In this document: positions 2,890-45,482 of the stretch, in pieces
How positions within the stretch are numbered: position 1 is the stretch's first letter
How the letters are laid out: each line of letters opens with the position of its first letter
Assembly (NCBI GenBank): GCA_002762795.1
Contig: PCYA01000009.1
Coordinates: 5,059-69,058, forward strand
From: Candidatus Woesearchaeota archaeon CG10_big_fil_rev_8_21_14_0_10_37_12
Lineage (GTDB): Archaea > Nanobdellota > Nanobdellia > Woesearchaeales > ARS49
DNA length: 64,000 bases
Direction: 5' to 3'
Translations under genes and position numbers: made by a program
Notes under the pieces: model-generated
Database searches by the model: none
What the model was told of the DNA's origin: nothing
What the model saw: the letters and a program-made list of their open reading frames with translations, nothing else

Positions 2890-2983
2890 ATATTTCTATG
2901 TTCTGCTGTGATTTTTATTCTTTATTGTAGTAGAAAGTAGAGAGTCCATTAAACAATAAAGAAATTGCCTGAAAACTCGCTAT

Positions 2984-3345
2984 CCCCGCAGCAAGCTGCG
3001 GGGTATTACTCGAGTTTTCTCGGCACTAAAAAACCACCGGGTTTTTGGTGCCCTGAAAATAAAAAGTATTTTCATGGCTTCGCCGACCAGCAATTTCAGT
3101 CTTTCAAGAACTGCCAAACAATGATATGTTTTGCGGCAGTTCTTGAGAATGCTCAGAATTTCAAAACAAAAACAATCAATTTTTGTGAAATTCTGACGTT
3201 TCAAAGTTGGTGCAGATAACTGCAGCAAGCTGCGGGGTACAAGAAAATCTCAAGATTTTCTGTACAGCGAAAAAAACATTTTTCGCGTACAGAAAACCGC
3301 AAGGTTTTCTTGTACAGGAAAAGCAGGGCTTTTCCTTGTATTCAA
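2984..3345. repeat. Hairpin-rich interspersed repeat cluster A. It has 2 copies of the palindrome CCCCGCAGCAAGCTGCGGGG, an 80-bp block shared with locus C and a 70-bp block shared with locus B
   Basis: Palindromes at 2984-3003 and 3220-3237. 3140-3205 resembles 26762-26830. 3270-3340 resembles 15237-15312 (CAGAAAACCGCAAGGTTTTCTTG hairpins). Confidence 0.7.
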
Positions 3346-3417
3346 CCCAACATTTGAAATAAAAAAGTATTATTTAAAAAGAACAATTTTTATATTTCTA
3401 TACATATCATTTCTGCT

Positions 3418-3693
3418 ATGAATAAACTTATGAAAGAAATTACTAAAAAAGCATTAGCCAAAGCAAAAGAGATAGAACAACACAATTTACCGACGGACGA
3501 AGAACTTTTTGAAATGCGCGAAAGAGCAATGGAAGAAGCACAACAATTACGAAGTCTCTTAAAACCAATAAGTCATCTTGACTGCAAACTAGAAGGAACA
3601 GTGCACATCGTCGGAAGAAAACAAAAAATTGCTCGAAAAACCAAATCAAAGAAACCTAAAAAACAGCCTAAAAAGAAAAATCTGCGACGATAA
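3418..3693 (+). CDS. Small, highly basic hypothetical protein with a K/R-rich C-terminal tail (nucleic-acid-binding candidate)
   Basis: ORF with an AT-rich, TATA-like upstream region (tttttatatttc). Tail is KTKSKKPKKQPKKKNLRR. Confidence 0.4.
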   Translation: MNKLMKEITKKALAKAKEIEQHNLPTDEELFEMRERAMEEAQQLRSLLKPISHLDCKLEGTVHIVGRKQKIARKTKSKKPKKQPKKKNLRR

Positions 3694-3895
3694 TGCAAAG
3701 GTTTTTGTTTTCTTTTTGAGAAAAGTTTATAAACAAGCATTGTTTCTCACAATCGTCGATCATAACGTTTAGAAAACGAAAAAAACAATAAAAAATAGTT
3801 TTCGTTTTCTAACTAATAAATGCCGCTAAATTGTTTAAACATATACGGTGTTTACTAGTTTCTCGACGTGGGTCGGAAAAAAGGAGGATGACCAA

Positions 3896-4183
3896 ATGGC
3901 AGAAAAAGTAGCAAAAGCAGGAGTAAAAAAAGAGGGTGGCTATCTTTACTTCGTTGACAAAAACGGAGATGTAAGCCGTGCAAAAATGGCACGCGGAAGA
4001 AAAGGCCGAGCAGGAAAACCAGAAAAAGTAGCAAAAGTAGGAGTAAAAAAACAATCAGGTTACTTATACTTCGTTGACAAAAACGGAGATGTAAGCCGTG
4101 CAAAAATGGCACGCGGCGGCAAAAAAAGAAAAGCAGCAAAACCAAAAGCAAAAAGAAAGACTGCAAAGAAAAAGAGACGATAA
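3896..4183 (+). CDS. Small lysine-rich protein made of two near-identical 42-aa repeats (KVAK-GVKK-GYLYFVDKNGDVSRAKMARG), with a poly-K/R tail
   Basis: Strong SD (aggagg) lies 7 nt before the ATG at 3896. The ORF table starts it at 3848 in the same frame. A 126-bp tandem DNA duplication lies within the CDS. Confidence 0.55.
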   Translation: MAEKVAKAGVKKEGGYLYFVDKNGDVSRAKMARGRKGRAGKPEKVAKVGVKKQSGYLYFVDKNGDVSRAKMARGGKKRKAAKPKAKRKTAKKKRR

Positions 4184-4280: not shown

Positions 4281-4916
4281 ATGGTATTAAACAAACTTAA
4301 AAAAATAATTAGTGCTTACTTCTGGACAGGACCAAAACAAAACCTCAAAATAGGTCTATACGGTCCACCAAATGCAGGCAAAACAACACTCGCAAACAGA
4401 ATATGCGTTGACTGGTTAGGAACAGAACTAGGAACAGTCTCACCAATAGCGCACGAAACAAGAGAAGTACAAGTCAAAGAAAACGTTTCCATAAAAGGAA
4501 AAAATGGTAAAGAACTAGTTTTTAATTTGGTAGATACGCCAGGAATTGCAACAAAAATAGACTACGAAGACTTCATGAAATCAGGCATGGGTGAAAAAAA
4601 AGCCAAAAAAAGAGCACGCGAAGCAACAAAAGGAGTTATAGAAAGTATAAAATGGCTAGATGATGTAGATACTGTGCTAGTTGTACTTGACGGAACACAA
4701 GACCCATACAGCCAAGTAAACGTCACAATCATTGGCAATCTTGCTGCACGAAACATCCCAGTAATGATTCTTGCAAACAAATCAGACTTAAAAAAATGCA
4801 GTATCAAAAAAGTACAAGCAGCATTCCCACAATACGAAGTGCTTGGCATCAGTGCCAAAAACGGAAAAAATGTAGAACAATTCTACGAAAAACTATTCGA
4901 ACTAGCAGGTAAATAA
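4281..4916 (+). CDS. Small GTP-binding protein (P-loop GTPase, archaeal type)
   Basis: G1 GPPNAGKTT, G3 DTPG, G4 NKSD. Confidence 0.8.
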   Translation: MVLNKLKKIISAYFWTGPKQNLKIGLYGPPNAGKTTLANRICVDWLGTELGTVSPIAHETREVQVKENVSIKGKNGKELVFNLVDTPGIATKIDYEDFMKSGMGEKKAKKRAREATKGVIESIKWLDDVDTVLVVLDGTQDPYSQVNVTIIGNLAARNIPVMILANKSDLKKCSIKKVQAAFPQYEVLGISAKNGKNVEQFYEKLFELAGK

Positions 4917-4918
4917 AA

Positions 4919-5293
4919 ATGGTAACACTACGATTCGTACCACAAACAGAAATAGAAGGCTTAAGCGGCATAGGCAAAATACGCAAACTACTAGACTTAG
5001 CCAAACAAAACAAAATAGTGCTGTTACAAGGCAGACTCAAACAAGAAGAAGAAACAGAACTAATCAAAGTAACAATGGAAGAAATAAACAAAAAATTCAA
5101 AGGAATAGAATTAGCAGTAATTAACCCATCAGAAACAGCAAAAGACGGATTCCAGAAACTAAAATATGATATGTTGAACCTGCTTTTCAGAGAAACACAA
5201 GGAATAACAGTCATCGGACCATCAACAGTTGTAAAAAACATAAAAAAAGACCCAACACAAATAGAAATGCTCACGCGCGAAGCGAGGAAATAA
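4919..5293 (+). CDS. DUF2073-like protein, the conserved archaeal partner of the upstream GTPase
   Basis: Starts 3 bp after the GTPase stop. Size and sequence (LRFVPQTEIEGL...IVLLQGRL) fit the archaeal GTPase-DUF2073-Zn-ribbon triad. Confidence 0.5.
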   Translation: MVTLRFVPQTEIEGLSGIGKIRKLLDLAKQNKIVLLQGRLKQEEETELIKVTMEEINKKFKGIELAVINPSETAKDGFQKLKYDMLNLLFRETQGITVIGPSTVVKNIKKDPTQIEMLTREARK

Positions 5294-5329
5294 AAATCCC
5301 AACACCGCAAGCGGTAGGTATTTTTAAAG
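5292..5329 (+). terminator. Intrinsic-terminator-like hairpin CCAACACCGCAAGCGGTAGG followed by a T-tract. It is a member of a repeat family (second copy at 26550-26589)
   Basis: GC stem-loop immediately after the stop codon, followed by TATTTTTAAA. A near-identical 38-mer follows the stop of gene 25506-26525. Confidence 0.5.
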
Positions 5330-5385
5330 TTATGATGCCTATCAATTGCGAGTAATACAAGGAGGAACCCAGCTGTATCAATGAG

Positions 5386-5793
5386 ATGCATGGGTATCAT
5401 ACAAATAAAATGCCACACCAATGCGTACGATGCAACAAAATGTATGAAGACGCAGCACAAGAACTTCTTTCAGGATGTGAATGCGGAGCACGACTATTCT
5501 TTTACATCAAAAAAGAAAAATTAGCAGTTGCAAAACAAGTATTGCAGCAAAATATGAACTTAGAACAAAAAAAACAAATGGAAGAAGACGTTCTTGACCT
5601 TGTAGGAAGCGACCACTCAGCACCTGTTGTTCTTGATTTTGAAAGTATACGCGTAACAAAACCAGGACAATACGAACTTGATTTAGTTAAATTATTCAAA
5701 CAAGACCCTTTAGTTTTCAAACTTGAAGAAGGAAAATACATCATTGATGTAGCACAAAGTTTTGAGAAACATAGAAAGAAACACAATCTTTAA
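5386..5793 (+). CDS. Zn-ribbon protein (DUF2072-like), third member of the archaeal GTPase triad
   Basis: CVRCN...17 aa...CECG Cys4 ribbon at the N-terminus. Confidence 0.5.
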   Translation: MHGYHTNKMPHQCVRCNKMYEDAAQELLSGCECGARLFFYIKKEKLAVAKQVLQQNMNLEQKKQMEEDVLDLVGSDHSAPVVLDFESIRVTKPGQYELDLVKLFKQDPLVFKLEEGKYIIDVAQSFEKHRKKHNL

Positions 5794-7647: not shown

Positions 7648-7895
7648 TCATAACACCTCTTTAATACGTATAACCGTACAATCAGTACCATAAGTATATA
7701 TAAATTTTTTGTAACTCTAGAATTGGCGCAACAAAGTACCGCAGCCCAGCTGCAAAGTATCAATATTAGGTTTAGCCTGCCTTTATAATCAATCATTAAA
7801 TAAGGACAATATCCAAACAACCCCAAAAACAGAAAAACAAAGCTGACGCATGTTTTTCTGAGTATTAAAAAGCTCAGCTTTTTAACACAACCCAA

Positions 7896-15129: not shown

Positions 15130-15516
15130 CGCCCGTTTTACTGTTCTTTTTTCAATGTCGGAATGCCACTCGTGTGCGTTACGAGTGGTTTACTGGAGCG
15201 AGTGGCACAACAAAATCACACTTGATTTTGTGTGCAACGAAAAATACATTTTTCGTGCACAGAAAACCTCGAGGTTTTCTTGTGCAAGAAAATTCTTTGA
15301 ATTTTCTTTGCATTCCGAGCATGATCAAGCCAAGAAAATCCAGAGGATTTTCTTGGGAACCACTGGACTATCTTTTCTTATGACTTTCTGAACGGTCATG
15401 CCACTGGTGTTTAGCGACGAAGGAGCTGTCAGAAATCGACAATAGTAATTATATTTTGTGTCGGTTTCTGAGCACCCAGAAAACACGCACAAAGCAATAT
15501 TATTTTTGCGTGTTTT
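15130..15516. repeat. Hairpin-rich interspersed repeat cluster B, filling a 430-bp intergenic gap
   Basis: GCCACTCG...CGAGTGGC and CCACTGGTG...CACCAGTGG inverted pairs. The 15237-15312 block is about 75% identical to 3270-3340. Confidence 0.65.
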
Positions 15517-15951
15517 CTATGGATCACCAGTGGTTCTTGACATATTGTGAAAAACAAAGAAATCATAAAGAAGAAATTTAGTTAATGCAAGAAATGCCAT
15601 AACAAGAGTGATGGAAAGAGCATAGTGAATATTCAACCAATCAACAAGTAGTTTTACCAAGTAAATATTTATTAAATAAAATGTAAATGTTAAAACACAA
15701 AAGCGTATAAATCTTGAACGGTGATAATCAGTCACGCGAAAAATAAATTTTGTTGCAACACCAAAATTAAATAAGGTTGTACATGTAGCCGCAATCACAT
15801 AAAATACATAATAATTTATCTTAAACCACTCAGTGAACGCATATGTGAAAAGAAGACTGAATAAATAACTTCCAACGCCACCAAAGGCATATCTTATGAA
15901 TAATTTCGATAAGTATTTATCTCTTACTAAACAAAGAGTTTTTTTTACCAT
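15517..15951 (-). CDS. GtrA-family small membrane protein
   Basis: 144 aa with 4 TM helices. It is adjacent to and overlaps the GT2 gene. Confidence 0.6.
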   Translation of the reverse strand: MVKKTLCLVRDKYLSKLFIRYAFGGVGSYLFSLLFTYAFTEWFKINYYVFYVIAATCTTLFNFGVATKFIFRVTDYHRSRFIRFCVLTFTFYLINIYLVKLLVDWLNIHYALSITLVMAFLALTKFLLYDFFVFHNMSRTTGDP

Positions 15952-18225: not shown

Positions 18226-18295
18226 GACGTGATAGCTAAAACTGGCAGGCGTTTTGTCTTTATCTCAATCATAGCTTAATTCTCCAAAGGATGGT

Positions 18296-18940
18296 TTATA
18301 AATTTTGCTATTACACGGGCTTTGTAGAAAGTCTTAACTAAATATGACCCTCTTGCTCACGCAAGAGGGGGTTGGAGTGTACCCCACCATGAGTAAGAAA
18401 GAACGTTTGGATAGAAAAATTAAGCGGTTATTTATGCGCGCGGGACACCCGCGCTGGTTCCATCATATGGGACCTAAGAAGTTTGAAACATGGATTCTTT
18501 ACTTGGGTATTATTGTTAAGCAAGTATACCGTTTATCGTATCGTAGAGCTTCACGATTTCTCGACGATTATTTCTGCATTAAAATACATTTTACAACTTT
18601 GCAGAAGGCAGCAAGGAGGCTGCCAAAAATTGTGTGGCAGGCTCTTCTGGCAGCAACAATAACTACTGATTTTGTGAAGCTTGCTGCTGCGGATGGAACT
18701 GGCTTTTCAAGAACGAACCCGAGCAATTATTATTTGAAAAGAATCGATCGGGACAGTCCCATTGGACGTCCCGTACAAGCAATAACGCTTGTAGATGTGC
18801 AAAAAAGAAAATTTTTGTCAGCAAATTTCTACGCCAAACCATACCATGAAGCACAACGCATTCCTGGTCTGCACAAGAAAAGCCCAGTCAAACCAGAAAT
18901 TTTGCTCATGGAATACACATTCAAAAGCTTTTTATACTGA
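18296..18940 (+). mobile_element. Truncated IS element. The terminal inverted repeat is GCTTTGTAGAAAGTCTTAAC plus the N-terminal about 190 aa of a DDE-type transposase. The ORF ends prematurely (pseudogene)
   Basis: The transposase-like sequence has AADGTGF. The terminal sequence is shared with the MITE at 25326-25495. It sits at the edge of a GC-rich island. Confidence 0.5.
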
Positions 18941-18945
18941 ATGGT

Positions 18946-20637
18946 GTGCAGTTATATGTTATGAGATCACTTCCAGTTATATCAGAATTAAAACAACAAG
19001 TGTTTTCGGTGAAGAGGGAGGAGTTGGACGCTGTGATTGTGGGTCCGGATCAGGGTGAGGATCCATATCAGGAAGGGTCTCGGAAGAACTTTAGTGGGCC
19101 ACCTCTTGGGGCTTATACCGTAGCTCATTTTGCTGAAGCTCAGGGCTTTAAAACGACAGTATGGGATCCTAACTTGGATGGGAAAAAAGGACTATATGAG
19201 TTAATTAGGGATAAAAGGCCTCCTGTCTTGGGATTTTCGATTTTGCATGAAACTCTTGAGGATGATGTAAGGAATATCGTTGCGGCAAAAGAGGCATCGC
19301 CGGATTCGACTATCGTAATCGGCGGCTTTGAAGCAACCTTGAATTGGAGGCAATTATTTACTGAAGTCCCAATGATTGACGTGGCGGTGCTGGGGATGGG
19401 GGAAAAGACATTTTCCTACATCTTGAGCAGTGCTCAGCAAGGACGTAGCGTTGAGTCTATTCCTGGTATTGTCTATAGAAAAGGACTAAATGATCTCGTT
19501 GAGACATCGCGTGAGAAATACACAAGCAGTGATTTCGTCGATGCGCTTAATAATCTTGATTTTGGAAGAGTCCCTTATCCGCGTTATTGGAATGTGATTA
19601 CCTCACAGGGTAGGGCAAGCTTAAACACGATCAGGATTATGCTCACGGCAAATGATTGCAACTATAATTGTTCCTTTTGTACAGTGCCAGAGTTTTGGTC
19701 GGGATCAGATAAACAGCGGATCCAAAGAGGACCGATTCTTGAGGATGATGTTTCTATCGCTCAGATAGTTCGCGCGGTAAGATTACAGCCAGATACGCAG
19801 GCATTCTATATTGAGGACGATAACTTTGGCATGAATCCTAAGAGGATGGAAAGTGTGGCGCGAGGGATTATCCGTGCGAAAGAAATAGGATATCTCCCTA
19901 AAGATATCAAATTCTTCTGCCAACTCCGTGCCGAGTCGCTTCTGGAACAAACGCTTAAAGTCATGTGCGATGCGGGTTTTACTGTGTTATCATTAGGTAT
20001 AGAATCCTTTTCCCCAAATGTGCTTAATGAATTGACCAAAGCAGGCCCGAAGGCTGGGGAAAAGACTGCCAAGAAATGGGATGAGCGCTTGAACATGATT
20101 CTTGGCGTGCCTGGACTGACTCCATCTATGTTTATGATCCTCTTTACTCCTCAATCAACGGTAGATGATGTCAAATTGACGATGGATACTACTCTGTATT
20201 GGGTCAATCGCGGGGTGAATATGAATCTCAATGGCTATATGATATCATATCCTGGGGCCCCTATGGAAGCAAATAAATATGAGACCTTGACGTATCGTCG
20301 TATCAATGTTCCAAACACAACTATTGACTTTAAGGTTACTGATTTGGTGATGCCTATCAATAAAGACGTGAAAAATCTCGCGGAAGAGGCGTATAAACGG
20401 CAGGAAAGAGCAGTGATGGATTTGAGTGATGAATACAACTTGCCTCGTGATAAAATTCCTTTGGTTATCGAGCATCTAGTCCTTTTTAGAGAAGTATATT
20501 CGCTTATCACTGACAAAAAAGGCCAAAAAAATGCCACCAATATGATTAATGAGCGCCTCAGTGAATTAACAAAGTCTGCTGGAGCACCTGTTAATAGCTA
20601 TACGCTTTCAGGAAGTGTTTCAGAACAGTCATGCTAA
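18946..20637 (+). CDS. B12-binding-domain radical SAM enzyme
   Basis: CNYNCSFC (CxxxCxxC) follows an N-terminal Rossmann-like B12-binding region. GC is about 50%. Confidence 0.7.
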   Translation: MQLYVMRSLPVISELKQQVFSVKREELDAVIVGPDQGEDPYQEGSRKNFSGPPLGAYTVAHFAEAQGFKTTVWDPNLDGKKGLYELIRDKRPPVLGFSILHETLEDDVRNIVAAKEASPDSTIVIGGFEATLNWRQLFTEVPMIDVAVLGMGEKTFSYILSSAQQGRSVESIPGIVYRKGLNDLVETSREKYTSSDFVDALNNLDFGRVPYPRYWNVITSQGRASLNTIRIMLTANDCNYNCSFCTVPEFWSGSDKQRIQRGPILEDDVSIAQIVRAVRLQPDTQAFYIEDDNFGMNPKRMESVARGIIRAKEIGYLPKDIKFFCQLRAESLLEQTLKVMCDAGFTVLSLGIESFSPNVLNELTKAGPKAGEKTAKKWDERLNMILGVPGLTPSMFMILFTPQSTVDDVKLTMDTTLYWVNRGVNMNLNGYMISYPGAPMEANKYETLTYRRINVPNTTIDFKVTDLVMPINKDVKNLAEEAYKRQERAVMDLSDEYNLPRDKIPLVIEHLVLFREVYSLITDKKGQKNATNMINERLSELTKSAGAPVNSYTLSGSVSEQSC

Positions 20638-26525: not shown

Positions 26526-26549
26526 GTTCATAACCTATAAAAAACAAAT

Positions 26550-26845
26550 AAAAATCCCAACCACCGCAAGCGGTGGAGTATTTTTAAACTTCATCGGGAA
26601 AAATCATACCGCAGCAGAGCTGCGGGGTATTATAATGAAATTCGTAAGAAATCGAACAAATAGTTGCGAATGTCAAGAACTGTCAAAAATAATCAATAAA
26701 TTGTGACAGTTCGCAAGAAATGCAAAGCATTTCTGCGCCCAGAAAATAACAAATTTTCTTGGGCTTGAGCACGCTCAGAAATTCATACAAACCATATTAA
26801 ATTTTGTGAATTTCTGACGTTTCAAATATAGTAAATTGCTAAATT
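26550..26845. repeat. Hairpin-rich interspersed repeat cluster C
   Basis: CCACCGCAAGCGGTGG (26560-26575) and CCGCAGCAGAGCTGCGG (26609-26625). The TTTTGTGAATTTCTGACGTTTCAAA block is shared with locus A. Confidence 0.65.
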
Positions 26846-26905
26846 GTTCGATATTTAAGGCAATTTACTATAGACCCAATGAAGAAATAAAAGATCGGTA
26901 TCAAT

Positions 26906-43022: not shown

Positions 43023-45482
43023 ATGAACCAAAAAATACTCACAACATTAATCGTATTCTTACTAGCAATAACACCAGCAACAGCAGACATGTTCGGCGGA
43101 CAATTTGCAGGCGGACAAGGAATTGGCTCTGGACAAATCGCAGGCGGACAAGGCATAGGATCAGGACAGCTTGCAGGCGGACAAGGAATCGGAGCTGGAC
43201 AACTAGCAGGCGGATTTGGAATTGGCGGACAATTAGCAAGTGGACAAGGCATAGGATCAGGAATGACCGGACAAATGCCAAGCAGCAACTTTGTCACACA
43301 AAACAGCATACAAAACACAAACACATTCACCACACAAAACCTCAACAACAACTTGTTAAACAACTTTGAAACAAGAACAGACACACCACGCACAACAACA
43401 CAAACACTTCAACAAATAACCACAACTGGAACAACGCTGCCAAGAATAACAAGCTCACCAGTCACAACAGCGCGAGTAAACTTCAGATATCACTATCAAA
43501 TCATTGCAACACAACCAAACAACCAACCATTAGCATACTTAATTCTAAACGGACCAAACGGAATGAGCGTAACAAACACAGGACGAGTAAGCTGGACACC
43601 AAACCAAACAGGACAATATAACATACAAATAGGAGTAAAAACACAAGGAACAAACTTAGTAACACCACAATCATACACAATCACAGTCACAGAAAACCAA
43701 GCACCAGAAATCACAAGCCAACCAACACTAACAGCAATTGTTGGACAAGAATACGTTTACCAGATAACAGCAACAGATGCTGACGGAGACAGAACAGGAT
43801 CATTACCAGTGCAATCACCACAAGGAACAAACTTCAACATACAAACACAAACACTAACCTGGACACCAACAGCAAATCAAGTTGGACAACACACATTCAA
43901 AATATTAGTGGGAGACAGCTTTACAACAACAGAACAACAATTCACAGTAACAGTCAGATCAAGTTCATCTAATAACAACGGATCAAATGGTGGTGCAGAT
44001 GGTGGTTCAGACAACACAAACAGAGCACCAGTCATCACAAGTACACCAATAACAAACGCAGCAGCAGGAACAAGATACACATACGATGTTGAGGCAACTG
44101 ATGCAGACAATAACTTACTTACCTATGCACTCTTAAGCTACCCACAAAGCATGCGCATCAACTTCCAAACAGGAGTAATTACATGGATACCGACAACAGC
44201 ACAAGCAGGAAACAATAACGTTCGCGTTGTTGTAAGCGATGGCAGAACATCAACAACACAAGACTTCATAATCAACGTAGCAGCAAATGCCTTGCCACAA
44301 TTTGTGTCAAGCCCAATAAACAATGCGATTGTTAACCAACCATACACATACAATGTTGATGCAATTGATCCAAACAATGACAATATTGTGTACGCACTAC
44401 CAACAAAACCAACAGGAATGACAATCAATCCGCTTACAGGAATCATAACATGGATACCAACAAGTACAGGATTCTTCAACGTCACAGTAAGCGCAACAGA
44501 CGGAGGACAACCAGTACTACAACTATTCACAATTCATGTTCAATCACAAAACACAATCAACAACCATCCGCCAGTCATCACATCAACACCAATCAGAACA
44601 GCAACAGCAGGAACACAGTATTTGTATGTAGTACTTGCAGATGATGCAGACGGAGACACAAAAACATTTAACGTAAACGGACCTTCTGGAATGACAATCA
44701 ACAGCTTAGGAGTTATCAGCTGGACACCAAACAATACACAAACAGGAAATCATCCAGTAAGTGTTTCAGTAACAGACGGAACAGACACAGCATCACAAAC
44801 ATACACGCTAACAGTACAAACTCAAAGTCAAGGGTCTGCCAGTTGGCAAACAATTCCAACAGTAACAATCAATCAAGGAGCAACCTCAGGAACCATTATT
44901 TTAAGCAACGTTCTAGACAGATGCACAGATCCAGCAAACCCATTTGTAAATGTACAAATACTAAGCAACACAGCAGACTTACAATTCACAATTGACAGTA
45001 GAAATGATCTAAAACTCATATACATACATCCAAACGTTGTTGGAACACGACAAGTAAGATTGGCATGCAACGGTGTAGCAACAAGCTTTAACCTAAACAT
45101 ACAAGCAACAAACAACCAAAACAACAACGGAAACAATAATGGAAATACAGGAAGCAACAGTAATTCTGAAATCACAGTAAACTCAATCATCATACCAAAC
45201 GCGTATGATATAAGTCCAGGAAGCAGAATACCAATTACAGTAAGCGTAAGAAAAACAACAGGACCAAGAATAGAAGACGTACAAATAACAGCAACAATAC
45301 AAACACTTGGTGCACGAGCAACAAGCAGTGTTTTTGACATCGAAGGAAGCACATCTGTCAGGAGAACAGTATTCCTCCAAATTCCAGGAAGTGCTGATCC
45401 AGGCATATACACTGTGCGCATATCCATCGATGGAAGAAATGGCGTGCATGAGCAACTACACAGACAAATAACAATACGATAA
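43023..45482 (+). CDS. Large secreted surface protein or adhesin with a GGQGIGSGQ(I/L)A repeat tract and 5 or more cadherin-like/Ig-like (He_PIG/CADG-type) domains
   Basis: Signal peptide. Repeated (Y/L)TY(D/N)V(E/D)A(T/I)D(A/P)D(G/N) motifs. T/N/Q-rich. Confidence 0.55.
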   Translation: MNQKILTTLIVFLLAITPATADMFGGQFAGGQGIGSGQIAGGQGIGSGQLAGGQGIGAGQLAGGFGIGGQLASGQGIGSGMTGQMPSSNFVTQNSIQNTNTFTTQNLNNNLLNNFETRTDTPRTTTQTLQQITTTGTTLPRITSSPVTTARVNFRYHYQIIATQPNNQPLAYLILNGPNGMSVTNTGRVSWTPNQTGQYNIQIGVKTQGTNLVTPQSYTITVTENQAPEITSQPTLTAIVGQEYVYQITATDADGDRTGSLPVQSPQGTNFNIQTQTLTWTPTANQVGQHTFKILVGDSFTTTEQQFTVTVRSSSSNNNGSNGGADGGSDNTNRAPVITSTPITNAAAGTRYTYDVEATDADNNLLTYALLSYPQSMRINFQTGVITWIPTTAQAGNNNVRVVVSDGRTSTTQDFIINVAANALPQFVSSPINNAIVNQPYTYNVDAIDPNNDNIVYALPTKPTGMTINPLTGIITWIPTSTGFFNVTVSATDGGQPVLQLFTIHVQSQNTINNHPPVITSTPIRTATAGTQYLYVVLADDADGDTKTFNVNGPSGMTINSLGVISWTPNNTQTGNHPVSVSVTDGTDTASQTYTLTVQTQSQGSASWQTIPTVTINQGATSGTIILSNVLDRCTDPANPFVNVQILSNTADLQFTIDSRNDLKLIYIHPNVVGTRQVRLACNGVATSFNLNIQATNNQNNNGNNNGNTGSNSNSEITVNSIIIPNAYDISPGSRIPITVSVRKTTGPRIEDVQITATIQTLGARATSSVFDIEGSTSVRRTVFLQIPGSADPGIYTVRISIDGRNGVHEQLHRQITIR

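Follow-up and report, generated by a model that had tools for sequence, protein, structure and literature searches.

A dispersed family of mosaic palindromic hairpin arrays in Woesearchaeota and Pacearchaeota

Among the repeats closest to those described here, repetitive extragenic palindromes and bacterial interspersed mosaic elements (REP/BIME) of Enterobacteria and Pseudomonas, which are mobilised by REP-associated tyrosine transposases (RAYTs), are short imperfect palindromes with bulges or mismatches. They are extragenic and multicopy, and form mosaic clusters with alternating hairpin orientation, linker motifs and a variable number of hairpins. BOX elements of Streptococcus pneumoniae (boxA-boxB(n)-boxC) and the ERIC, RUP and Correia repeats are intergenic, modular, strongly folding and variable in the number of internal modules, with no known transposase of their own. 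Miniature inverted-repeat transposable elements (MITEs) and PATE-like derivatives of IS200/IS605 insertion sequences are small, discrete and non-coding, with near-identical copies at unrelated sites and presence or absence at orthologous ones, and sponge RNAs of the CsrB/RsmZ type string together a variable number of similar hairpins. Y1/HUH transposases and some recombinases recognise bulged hairpins in single-stranded DNA, the extrahelical base marking the strand, as in REP-RAYT, IS200/IS605 and integron attC. Here we describe arrays with likenesses to each of these repeat classes in a 64,000-nt stretch of Candidatus Woesearchaeota archaeon CG10_big_fil_rev_8_21_14_0_10_37_12 (GenBank assembly GCA_002762795.1, contig PCYA01000009.1, positions 5,059 to 69,058 of the forward strand), hereafter the window. 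Its three arrays, loci A, B and C, are real copies of a dispersed family of hairpin chains found across Pacearchaeota and Woesearchaeota.

The family differs from each of these systems. Compared with REP/BIME, its host is archaeal (DPANN), its stems are rich in A- and T-tracts rather than GC, the GTAG hallmark is missing and no RAYT was found; its pairing is almost entirely Watson-Crick without a strand signal, which suggests structure at the DNA level, and its unit has fixed ends conserved across many species, which is unusual for REPs. BOX-like repeats have unrelated sequences and belong to another domain of life, whereas the modules here are single hairpins with one stem-base consensus that can nest in loops. 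Unlike MITEs, the family shows no parent insertion sequence, clear terminal inverted repeats or variable target duplication, and its phylogenetic range is wide; a single-strand mechanism of the IS200/IS605 type would fit subterminal hairpins in place of long terminal inverted repeats. In CsrB/RsmZ RNAs it is the loops that hold the conserved motif, GGA, whereas in this family conservation sits at the stem base and the loops are variable. Full-text searches that paired the names DPANN, Woesearchaeota or Pacearchaeota with the terms hairpin, MITE or REP found no description of such repeats or, in the literature searched, of a protein-hairpin recognition system of this kind in DPANN archaea, and a recent survey of REPs in bacteria and archaea mentions neither DPANN, Nanoarchaeota nor RAYT. 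The family is apparently undescribed; it would add a new host lineage to the known kinds of interspersed, mosaic palindromic repeat, and its fixed unit of four hairpins is unusual.

The window is AT-rich (34.7% GC). An original prediction, made from its letters and open reading frames (ORFs), had placed a family of hairpin-dense repeats at three intergenic loci with a mini-copy near 5292. The loci are confirmed, although their extents had to be corrected to those listed below and the non-coding gaps that hold A, B and C measure 528, 432 and 380 nt, not 300-430 bp. When the three gaps were compared with the window by local BLAST, the modules common to A, B and C were 86-100% identical. A block proposed to be some 70 bp long and common to A and B was recovered as 86% identity over 69 nt (3254-3322 against 15224-15292, E 1e-10). 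A module common to A and C matched at 24 of 25 positions (3181-3205 against 26802-26826, E 5e-6; 83% over 40 nt). The GC palindromes said to occur twice in A and once in C were also found, with an exact 18/18 match inside A (2988-3005 against 3222-3239, E 4e-4) and a 96% match over 24 columns with a one-base gap between A 2986-3008 and C 26609-26632 (E 0.005-0.007). The hairpin followed by a T-tract at C and near 5292 held as a shared sequence (26546-26588 against 5288-5328, 93% over 43 nt, E 3e-7), but the inner stem at the latter site is imperfect (ACCGCAAGCGGT).

RNA folding resolves each of A, B and C into a chain of eight to ten hairpins. Fold z-scores against dinucleotide shuffles were -10.9 for A, -10.4 for B and -11.7 for C, and none of 100 shuffles folded as well. 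The features of the window that belong to the family or resemble it are the following; a strand is given where one is assigned.

2955-3366: locus A, a complete 'A-type' composite array of about ten hairpins, from 5'-AATAAAGAAATTGCC to CCAACATTTGAAATAAA-3'.
2984-3003: GC palindrome CCCCGCAGCAAGCTGCGGGG of A, perfect over 20 nt, inside the outer stem GAAAACTCG/CGAGTTTTC (about 2969-3019).
3022-3052 and 3054-3074: hairpins GGCAC..GTGCC and TGAAAATA..TATTTTCA of A, a module absent from the foreign array L044c.
3105-3195: two-hairpin module of A common to C, CAAGAACTGCC..GGCAGTTCTTG at 3105-3145 and CAGAATTTCA..TGAAATTCTG at 3154-3195.
3220-3239: second copy of the GC palindrome in A, CTGCAGCAAGCTGCGGGGTA, with the 18-nt core exact at 3222-3239.
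3240-3262, 3265-3287, 3290-3312 and 3315-3338: four A-tract/T-tract hairpins of A with GTA joints.
3769-3812: single 14-bp A-tract/T-tract hairpin, TAGAAAACGAAAA..TTTTCGTTTTCTA, placed in the family by resemblance only.
5288-5328, plus strand: mini-copy D, a single hairpin of the type called H1 below with a T5 tail, overlapping the oapB stop codon.
7830-7885: pair of hairpins of the family type, CAGAAAAACA..TGTTTTTCTG and TTAAAAAGC..GCTTTTTAA, between the divergent PhoU and DHH genes.
15155-15543: locus B, with inverted canonical termini, ATGTCGGAATGC at 15155-15166 on the left and TTCTTGACAT at 15534-15543 on the right.
15159-15166 with 15310-15317: stem CGGAATGC with GCATTCCG of B, enclosing the hairpin CCACTCG..CGAGTGG at 15167-15189 and the four tandem hairpins at 15206-15310.
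15206-15310: four tandem hairpins of B with GTGC joints, homologous to A 3240-3338.
15330-15533: further hairpins of B, CCAAGAAAATCC..GGATTTTCTTGG at 15330-15356, TCAGAAATCGACA..TGTCGGTTTCTGA at 15430-15472 and CCCAGAAAACACGC..GCGTGTTTTCTATGG at 15476-15522.
15401-15409 with 15525-15533: stem CCACTGGTG with CACCAGTGG of B, enclosing the hairpins at 15430-15472 and 15476-15522.
26546-26885: locus C, seven or eight hairpins, most of them within the long-range stem CTTCATCGGG (26589-26598) with CCCAATGAAG (26875-26884).
26550-26585, plus strand: nested H1-type hairpin of C, AAAAAT../..ATTTTT around CCACCGCAAGCGGTGG (26561-26576), with a T5 end.
26609-26625: GC palindrome CCGCAGCAGAGCTGCGG of C; the core known from A lies at 26609-26632 with a one-base insertion.
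26677-26712 and 26713-26738: hairpins GAACTGTCA..TGACAGTTC and GCAAGAAATGC..GCATTTCTGCGC of C.
26738-26763 and 26776-26817: hairpins CCCAGAAAAT..ATTTTCTTGGG and CAGAAATTCA..TGAATTTCTG of C.

Most of these hairpins, which are 24-45 nt long, follow one design. The conserved stem base has CA-(N)-GAAAA as its 5' arm and TTTTC-(N)-TG as its 3' arm, one of the two carrying a single bulged base; above the stem base lie a tip of two to six variable pairs, which differs between hairpins but stays complementary, and a variable loop of 3-5 nt. The blocks at A 3240-3338 and B 15206-15310 each consist of four such hairpins set head to tail with joints of only GTA or GTG, and in both the bulge lies on the 5' arm in the first two hairpins and on the 3' arm in the last two. 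Elsewhere an A/T-rich outer stem surrounds a GC mini-hairpin (2969-3019 around 2984-3003; 26550-26585), and besides the enclosing stems listed for B and C, locus A has a long-range stem of 3199-3210 with 3347-3359. Stems of corresponding modules differ in a compensatory manner, as in A against C (CAGAATTTCA/TGAAATTCTG against CAGAAATTCA/TGAATTTCTG) and A against B (GCGAAAAA/TTTTTCGC against ACGAAAAA/TTTTTCGT). When the whole window was scanned for folding in sliding 50-nt segments, A, B and C stood out, as did a stretch at 18.3-18.9 kb that is richer in GC and apparently coding; some smaller clusters passed the threshold too, among them the tRNA at the stricter setting for both strands. A hairpin-dense ORF region at 18321-18910, GC-richer and without a Pfam match, was rejected as a member of the family.

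The metagenome scan, with the core hairpin CAGAAAAYCNNNNGRTTTTCTTGT as the query, returned 83 loci. Matches in contigs of higher GC (above about 43%) lack hairpins in their flanks and look as if they arose by chance or within coding sequence; those in AT-rich contigs fall into two groups. The first consists of window-type mosaics, nine fetched stretches on four contigs (Ga0210057_1000041 of 282 kb, Ga0210057_1000046 of 266 kb and two from sample 3300004210), in which window modules recur at 92-98% identity between flanks unlike those of the window. B 15357-15426 is 91-94% identical to L044, and C 26578-26629 is 98% identical to L083 and L035. These contigs are probably from the same organism as the window because the repeats are so nearly identical and the source samples are shared. 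The same-organism contigs L001-L003 are 100% identical to the window and thus uninformative for covariation. One window-type array, on Ga0210057_1000046, has a 5S rRNA gene (L083 48-160; 62 bits with Rfam) at a distance of about 5 kb.

The second group carries a canonical unit of four hairpins, H1 to H4, 105-235 nt long, on dozens of contigs from groundwater and sediment metagenomes. Its consensus is aTCAAAAAnn..nnTTTTTgGGAT-G-CA[A/T]GAAAAnn..nnTTTTC[T/G]G-CA-CAGAAAATCnnnnGATTTTCTTG-TG-yTCAGAAAn..nTTTCTGA-CAT, in which H2 (bulge on the 5' arm) and H3 (bulge on the 3' arm) are one hairpin in opposite orientations, an arrangement shared with BIMEs. In anchored logos conservation sets in abruptly at ATCAAAAA and stops abruptly at CTGACAT(A); the logos show none outside the unit and no promoter-like or TATA-like signal at a fixed distance upstream. 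The scan of reference genomes gave 11 matches, all 11 of them in archaeal metagenome-assembled genomes, mostly labelled Candidatus Pacearchaeota, Woesearchaeota or Nanoarchaeota, one labelled Methanosarcinales and two labelled only 'archaeon'.

A covariance model, R1, was trained on 12 simple foreign units only. It nevertheless aligned over its full length to B (15209-15313, 68 bits, E 9e-13), to A (3239-3373, 54 and 52 bits on the two strands) and to C (26682-26782, 39 bits), and it also detected the mosaic copies and further units in relatives; its match to the hairpins at 7830-7885 was weak (E 0.12). In foreign loci R1 found copies beyond those used for fetching; L019 has a high density, with five units in 14 kb, and L064 has two in inverted orientation. 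The additional matches in 411 kb correspond to about one extra detectable copy per 30 kb, or tens per genome, as a rough estimate rather than a direct count. The search for further copies proposed along with the original prediction thus extended the family well beyond the window, and R1 offers a direct handle for a census of it.

Some units are more elaborate. L112 holds two full units in tandem and further hairpins inside the loop of a nested hairpin. A second-order module, CTTCAGnnnn..nnnnCTGACAG plus TCATCAnGAAn..nTTCnTGAGAG, was seen in L017, L057, L091 and L112 (e.g., L112 4843-5549, reverse strand); it sits after the TAAAG loop of a GC mini-hairpin that itself lies within H1 or H4, so that nesting is three levels deep. 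Searches with the GC-palindrome pattern in viral contigs met only one coding motif of gut phages (translating as ...LGSIAAGY...), which is irrelevant here.

To examine pairing, 41 high-scoring units were aligned to the model. Standard pairs filled 96.4% of the cells, against 86.7% in shuffles and 37-58% when the registers were slid, and 16 of the 27 pairs showed double-sided changes (109 cells); none of 500 shuffles reached the observed values. Fitting the alignment to the model inflates these pairing values somewhat, but compensatory tips are evident in the raw sequences as well. The pairing is under selection, as the covariation check suggested at the outset bears out. Its character is almost purely Watson-Crick: of 1059 cells, 25 held G-U or U-G and 11 held A-C or C-A, and without one doubtful outer pair the counts were 14 and 11. 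The better-folding strand was the forward one in 15 units and the reverse one in 16, the two differing by 0.7 kcal/mol on average. For a structured RNA encoded in an AT-rich genome, numerous G-U pairs on its own strand would ordinarily be tolerable. Near-pure Watson-Crick pairing together with strand symmetry fits hairpins that are needed in DNA, or on both strands. The conserved, covarying, almost purely Watson-Crick hairpin with its single bulge suggests that a specific protein recognises it in folded single-stranded nucleic acid.

Units are mostly intergenic, and their orientation relative to the flanking genes is random, the four combinations occurring 9, 7, 7 and 7 times in model-defined coordinates. 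Comparisons of presence and absence, which are between genera or species and not strains, show sites occupied in one genome and empty in another. In three relatives (L108-L110) that share the synteny oapCBA / small genes / herA-mre11, the gap upstream of herA measures 70-121 nt against 528 nt in the window. In the pacearchaeal L026 a 121-nt unit lies directly beside the TATA box of a putative RNase J promoter (read by eye), while the same gap in L111-L113 (80-84% protein identity) is 77-104 nt long, with promoter-like sequence recognisable and no unit. L026 was rejected as an orthologous site for A itself, as it has a mre11 homolog but a different gene order. Among the few apparently syntenic copies are those of two Pacearchaeota relatives, which both carry a unit between the genes for a proteasome subunit and an aCPSF1-type (KH plus beta-CASP) ribonuclease (L111 16586-16687; L113 19547-19691). 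In the gap orthologous to that of the 7830-7885 hairpins, L108 and L109 carry different family-type hairpins.

The A-type arrays of the window, L052, L030 and L044c all start with AATAAAGAAATTGCC and end with CCAACATTTGAAATAA(A), in unrelated flanks. All differences among the four are whole hairpins or groups of hairpins gained or lost, bracketed by direct repeats of 3-18 nt (the 18-nt GC palindrome core, TTTCAA, TGTACAG, GTA and GGC). L052 lacks the module at 3105-3195, whose stems differ compensatorily from those of C, and TTTCAA direct repeats border the resulting gap; the 18-nt direct repeat at 2988-3005 and 3222-3239 brackets a 234-nt segment that L030 does not have. Loss and gain of whole hairpins between direct repeats is the pattern expected of slipped mispairing at palindromes or of recombination between modules. 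AATAAA flanks both ends of the A-type array in all copies, and AT stands at both ends of the canonical unit; these could be a specific target or part of the element. In L089 (2560-3560) a 103-codon ORF resembling a membrane protein (2913-3224) lies between two direct copies of an array of about 290 nt, a cassette-like arrangement that could allow gene loss or gain by recombination.

We put at about even the chances that A, B, C and the hairpins at 5288-5328 and 7830-7885 belong to a family of palindromic DNA repeats that are mosaic and non-autonomous, comparable to REP/BIME, BOX or MITEs. These systems are the best match because the elements have discrete ends, occupy many unrelated intergenic sites independently of gene orientation and are missing from orthologous sites, and because they form near-identical mosaics that differ by whole hairpins, alternate in orientation, carry a single extrahelical base and pair in Watson-Crick fashion. 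Under such a scheme the elements would spread as DNA into AT-rich, promoter-proximal spacers, and the hairpins would act in single-stranded DNA, by analogy with REP-RAYT or the ends of IS200/IS605, the single extrahelical base marking the strand in hairpins that alternate in orientation. Some enzyme or recombination process would move or maintain the elements. Slipped mispairing at palindromes would generate the mosaics, and in the organism of the window the modules would have been shuffled and multiplied into arrays of 300-400 nt. Elements that are transcribed through would also fold in RNA and might secondarily serve as barriers or stabilisers. Of the three roles first offered for the repeats, that of MITE-like mobile hairpins is thus the best supported as regards the fixed ends, unrelated sites, orthologous absence, random orientation and near-identical copies, but not as regards terminal inverted repeats or a parent insertion sequence.

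Several observations count against an interpretation as mobile repeats. No transposase, RAYT or other recurrent neighbour gene was found in the genome fragments that were searched. No match to E. coli RayT came from a phmmer search of all stop-to-stop segments with a length of 60 aa or more, taken from 796 kb of archaeal DNA and the window; this is a weak test, a single-sequence search of low sensitivity over genome fragments. Clustering of 331 neighbouring ORFs gave no recurrent protein family besides spurious ORFs of the element and a Lhr-like helicase (recognised by eye), which occurs at 7 loci in inconsistent position and orientation. Neither clear terminal inverted repeats nor a target-site duplication that varies between sites was found: the unit ends ATCAAAAA and ATGTCAGAAA (the reverse complement of the right end) have only a generic CA(R)AAA in common and no parent insertion sequence was seen, and the inverted canonical termini of B come from two oppositely oriented units. 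Instead of the GTAG typical of REPs there are feet of CA...TG and junctions of GTAC, GTGC or GCA. Stem bases are conserved across contigs of about 27-28% to about 40% GC, and copies within one genome can differ by compensatory changes yet resemble those of other genomes; together these look more like long-term functional constraint than recent bursts of a transposon. Structured RNAs, too, typically have hairpins nested at the tips of helices.

It is therefore possible, though we would call it tentative and on the unlikely side, that the family is a conserved nucleic-acid device of Pacearchaeota and Woesearchaeota, needed by the host and present in tens of copies per genome of about 1 Mb, either as the DNA half of a new archaeal hairpin-enzyme system or as a multi-hairpin scaffold of a new class in RNA or ribonucleoprotein. 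If true, the DNA-half version would be the first REP-RAYT-like system in Archaea.

Unlikely in our estimate is that the units are genes or transcribed parts of a structured non-coding RNA family, acting as a protein sponge or scaffold or processed into small hairpin RNAs, with the arrays of the window as expanded forms. The strong covariation with stem bases kept across many species speaks for this reading, as do the variable insertions at helix tips, the GAAnnTTAGTGA-like motif common to a subset of H4 loops, the long-range closing stems of A, B and C, and the asymmetry of the unit sequence, which scores 65-120 bits with R1 in forward orientation and 35-55 bits in reverse. However, G-U is about as rare as A-C and neither strand folds better. 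Upstream of the units no TATA-like signal stands at a constant spacing, the units face either way relative to genes at random, their sites are occupied in some relatives and not in others, and hardly any unpaired nucleotides are conserved. Rfam offered no family either: at gathering scores Rfam 15 found only tRNA-Trp in the whole window, and at E<=1 over A, B, C and six foreign loci it gave only weak miRNA- or sRNA-like chance matches far below threshold. The first proposal of a structured RNA family has the covariation in its favour and the pairing, strand, promoter and Rfam results against it.

That the repeats are transcription barriers or terminator cassettes, halting or stabilising transcripts that arrive from either side by hairpins with T4-T5 runs on both strands, seems to us distinctly unlikely. 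Every hairpin does carry T3-T5 on both strands, and units tend to sit just upstream of TATA-like sequences when these are read by eye. Again judged by eye, since promoter tools do not extend to archaea, herA, the 91-codon gene and the glycosyltransferase gene downstream of B each have a TATA-like sequence that would lie just outside the elements. Both C and D have an H1-type GC hairpin with T5 that sits 0-24 nt past the stop codon of a co-oriented gene; in C it starts 24 nt past the stop of the upstream glycosyltransferase gene. These first hairpins of C and D look like the only terminator-like parts of the family, and a scan for bacterial-type terminators did not call them. The T5 run expected of archaeal terminators occurs only in H1. 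Moreover, A and several units lie between divergent genes, where there is nothing to terminate, the convergent gene pairs of the window overlap or sit 5-22 nt apart without such hairpins, and relatives lack the element at the same sites. The more specific idea of terminator or promoter cassettes coordinating glycosylation operons was not sustained: the family is genome-wide and lineage-wide, and although B and C do lie amid glycosyltransferase, GtrA and flippase genes, A lies outside them, between herA and a small basic-protein gene adjoining oapABC. A link to the glycosylation genes is not supported.

We regard as very unlikely a further explanation, in which a dimeric transcription factor or a nucleoid protein binds the arrays as duplex DNA, at inverted repeats of the form CAGAAAA..TTTTCTG. 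It would account for the conserved part of the hairpin being a pair of inverted half-sites and for arrays near promoters, but the spacing of the half-sites runs from about 8 to more than 40 nt, and the inner positions stay complementary by compensatory change, which a duplex-binding protein would not need. That locus A is a replication origin we can hardly credit, even though OapB and OapC domains lie 1.5-2.4 kb away and its GC palindromes are followed by GGGGTA, which we presume to resemble the G-string of origin recognition boxes (ORB), since the modules of A are found again at B, C and some ten further loci, relatives with oap-herA synteny have no element, no orc1/cdc6 was seen among the annotated genes of the window and GC skew does not change at A.

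Other identities were discarded. Read on the opposite strand, the CTGACAT end could begin a small ORF (ATGTCAG), but most copies have in-frame stops. A CRISPR array does not apply, as the hairpins abut without spacers and differ from each other, and Tandem Repeats Finder reports no such array. The integron attC core GTTRRRY was not seen at unit ends when these were inspected by eye.

The genomes of Pacearchaeota and Woesearchaeota are small and tightly packed, yet the organism of the window spends 300-400 nt per locus on these arrays; the load amounts to three large loci in the 64-kb window and some ten further loci on fragments from other contigs, probably of the same organism. Such repeats break assemblies, as contig L001 begins inside A, and spurious ORFs running through them can mislead ORF callers. 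Dispersed near-identical copies could also drive rearrangement of surface-glycosylation gene clusters.

The gene content of the window is archaeal, with HerA, OapB and OapC identified by Pfam, and homologs of its HerA at 66-70% identity are named Woesearchaeota. A Mre11-like gene was recognised by eye at 194-1399; a PhoU/MazE-domain gene (from precomputed Pfam matches) and a DHH gene are also present. At 4281-5793 an oapA-like GTPase gene is followed by OapB and OapC ('origin-associated protein' domains), and the synteny with herA-mre11 is kept in the window and three relatives. Directly downstream of A, a lysine-rich ORF of 91 codons (3418-3693) has no Pfam match and is identical in three other assemblies. 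A very basic ORF of 111 codons at 3848-4183 is built from two 40-residue repeats (KVAKAGVKKEGGYLYFVDKNGDVSRAKMARG...), which correspond to a tandem duplication of 120 nt with 88-90% identity (copies at 3900-4003 and 4020-4123); it has no convincing Pfam match and has a homolog at the same place, next to oapA, in the relative L108. Its product may bind nucleic acid.

In the divergent DHH/PhoU gap of three relatives (L108 5900-5960, L109 900-960, L110 640-700) there is a strongly conserved GC hairpin, GGCAGGTCC(GA/TG)GGACCTGCC, followed by CTGTGAGTGATGC; the sequence in the window differs from it. This hairpin may be a small conserved RNA or an operator. The island at 18226-20637 is GC-richer than its surroundings (42% against 35%) and may be foreign DNA; its ORF of 198 codons (18344-18940) has no Pfam match and looks transposase-like by eye only, and a B12-binding radical SAM gene (18946-20637) follows it. 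Further along, 43023-45482 encodes a protein of 819 codons with several Ig-like (He_PIG/Big_9) domains, likely a surface protein, and near the start of this gene a 33-nt tandem repeat (43098-43288) encodes GQxAGGQGIGS units.

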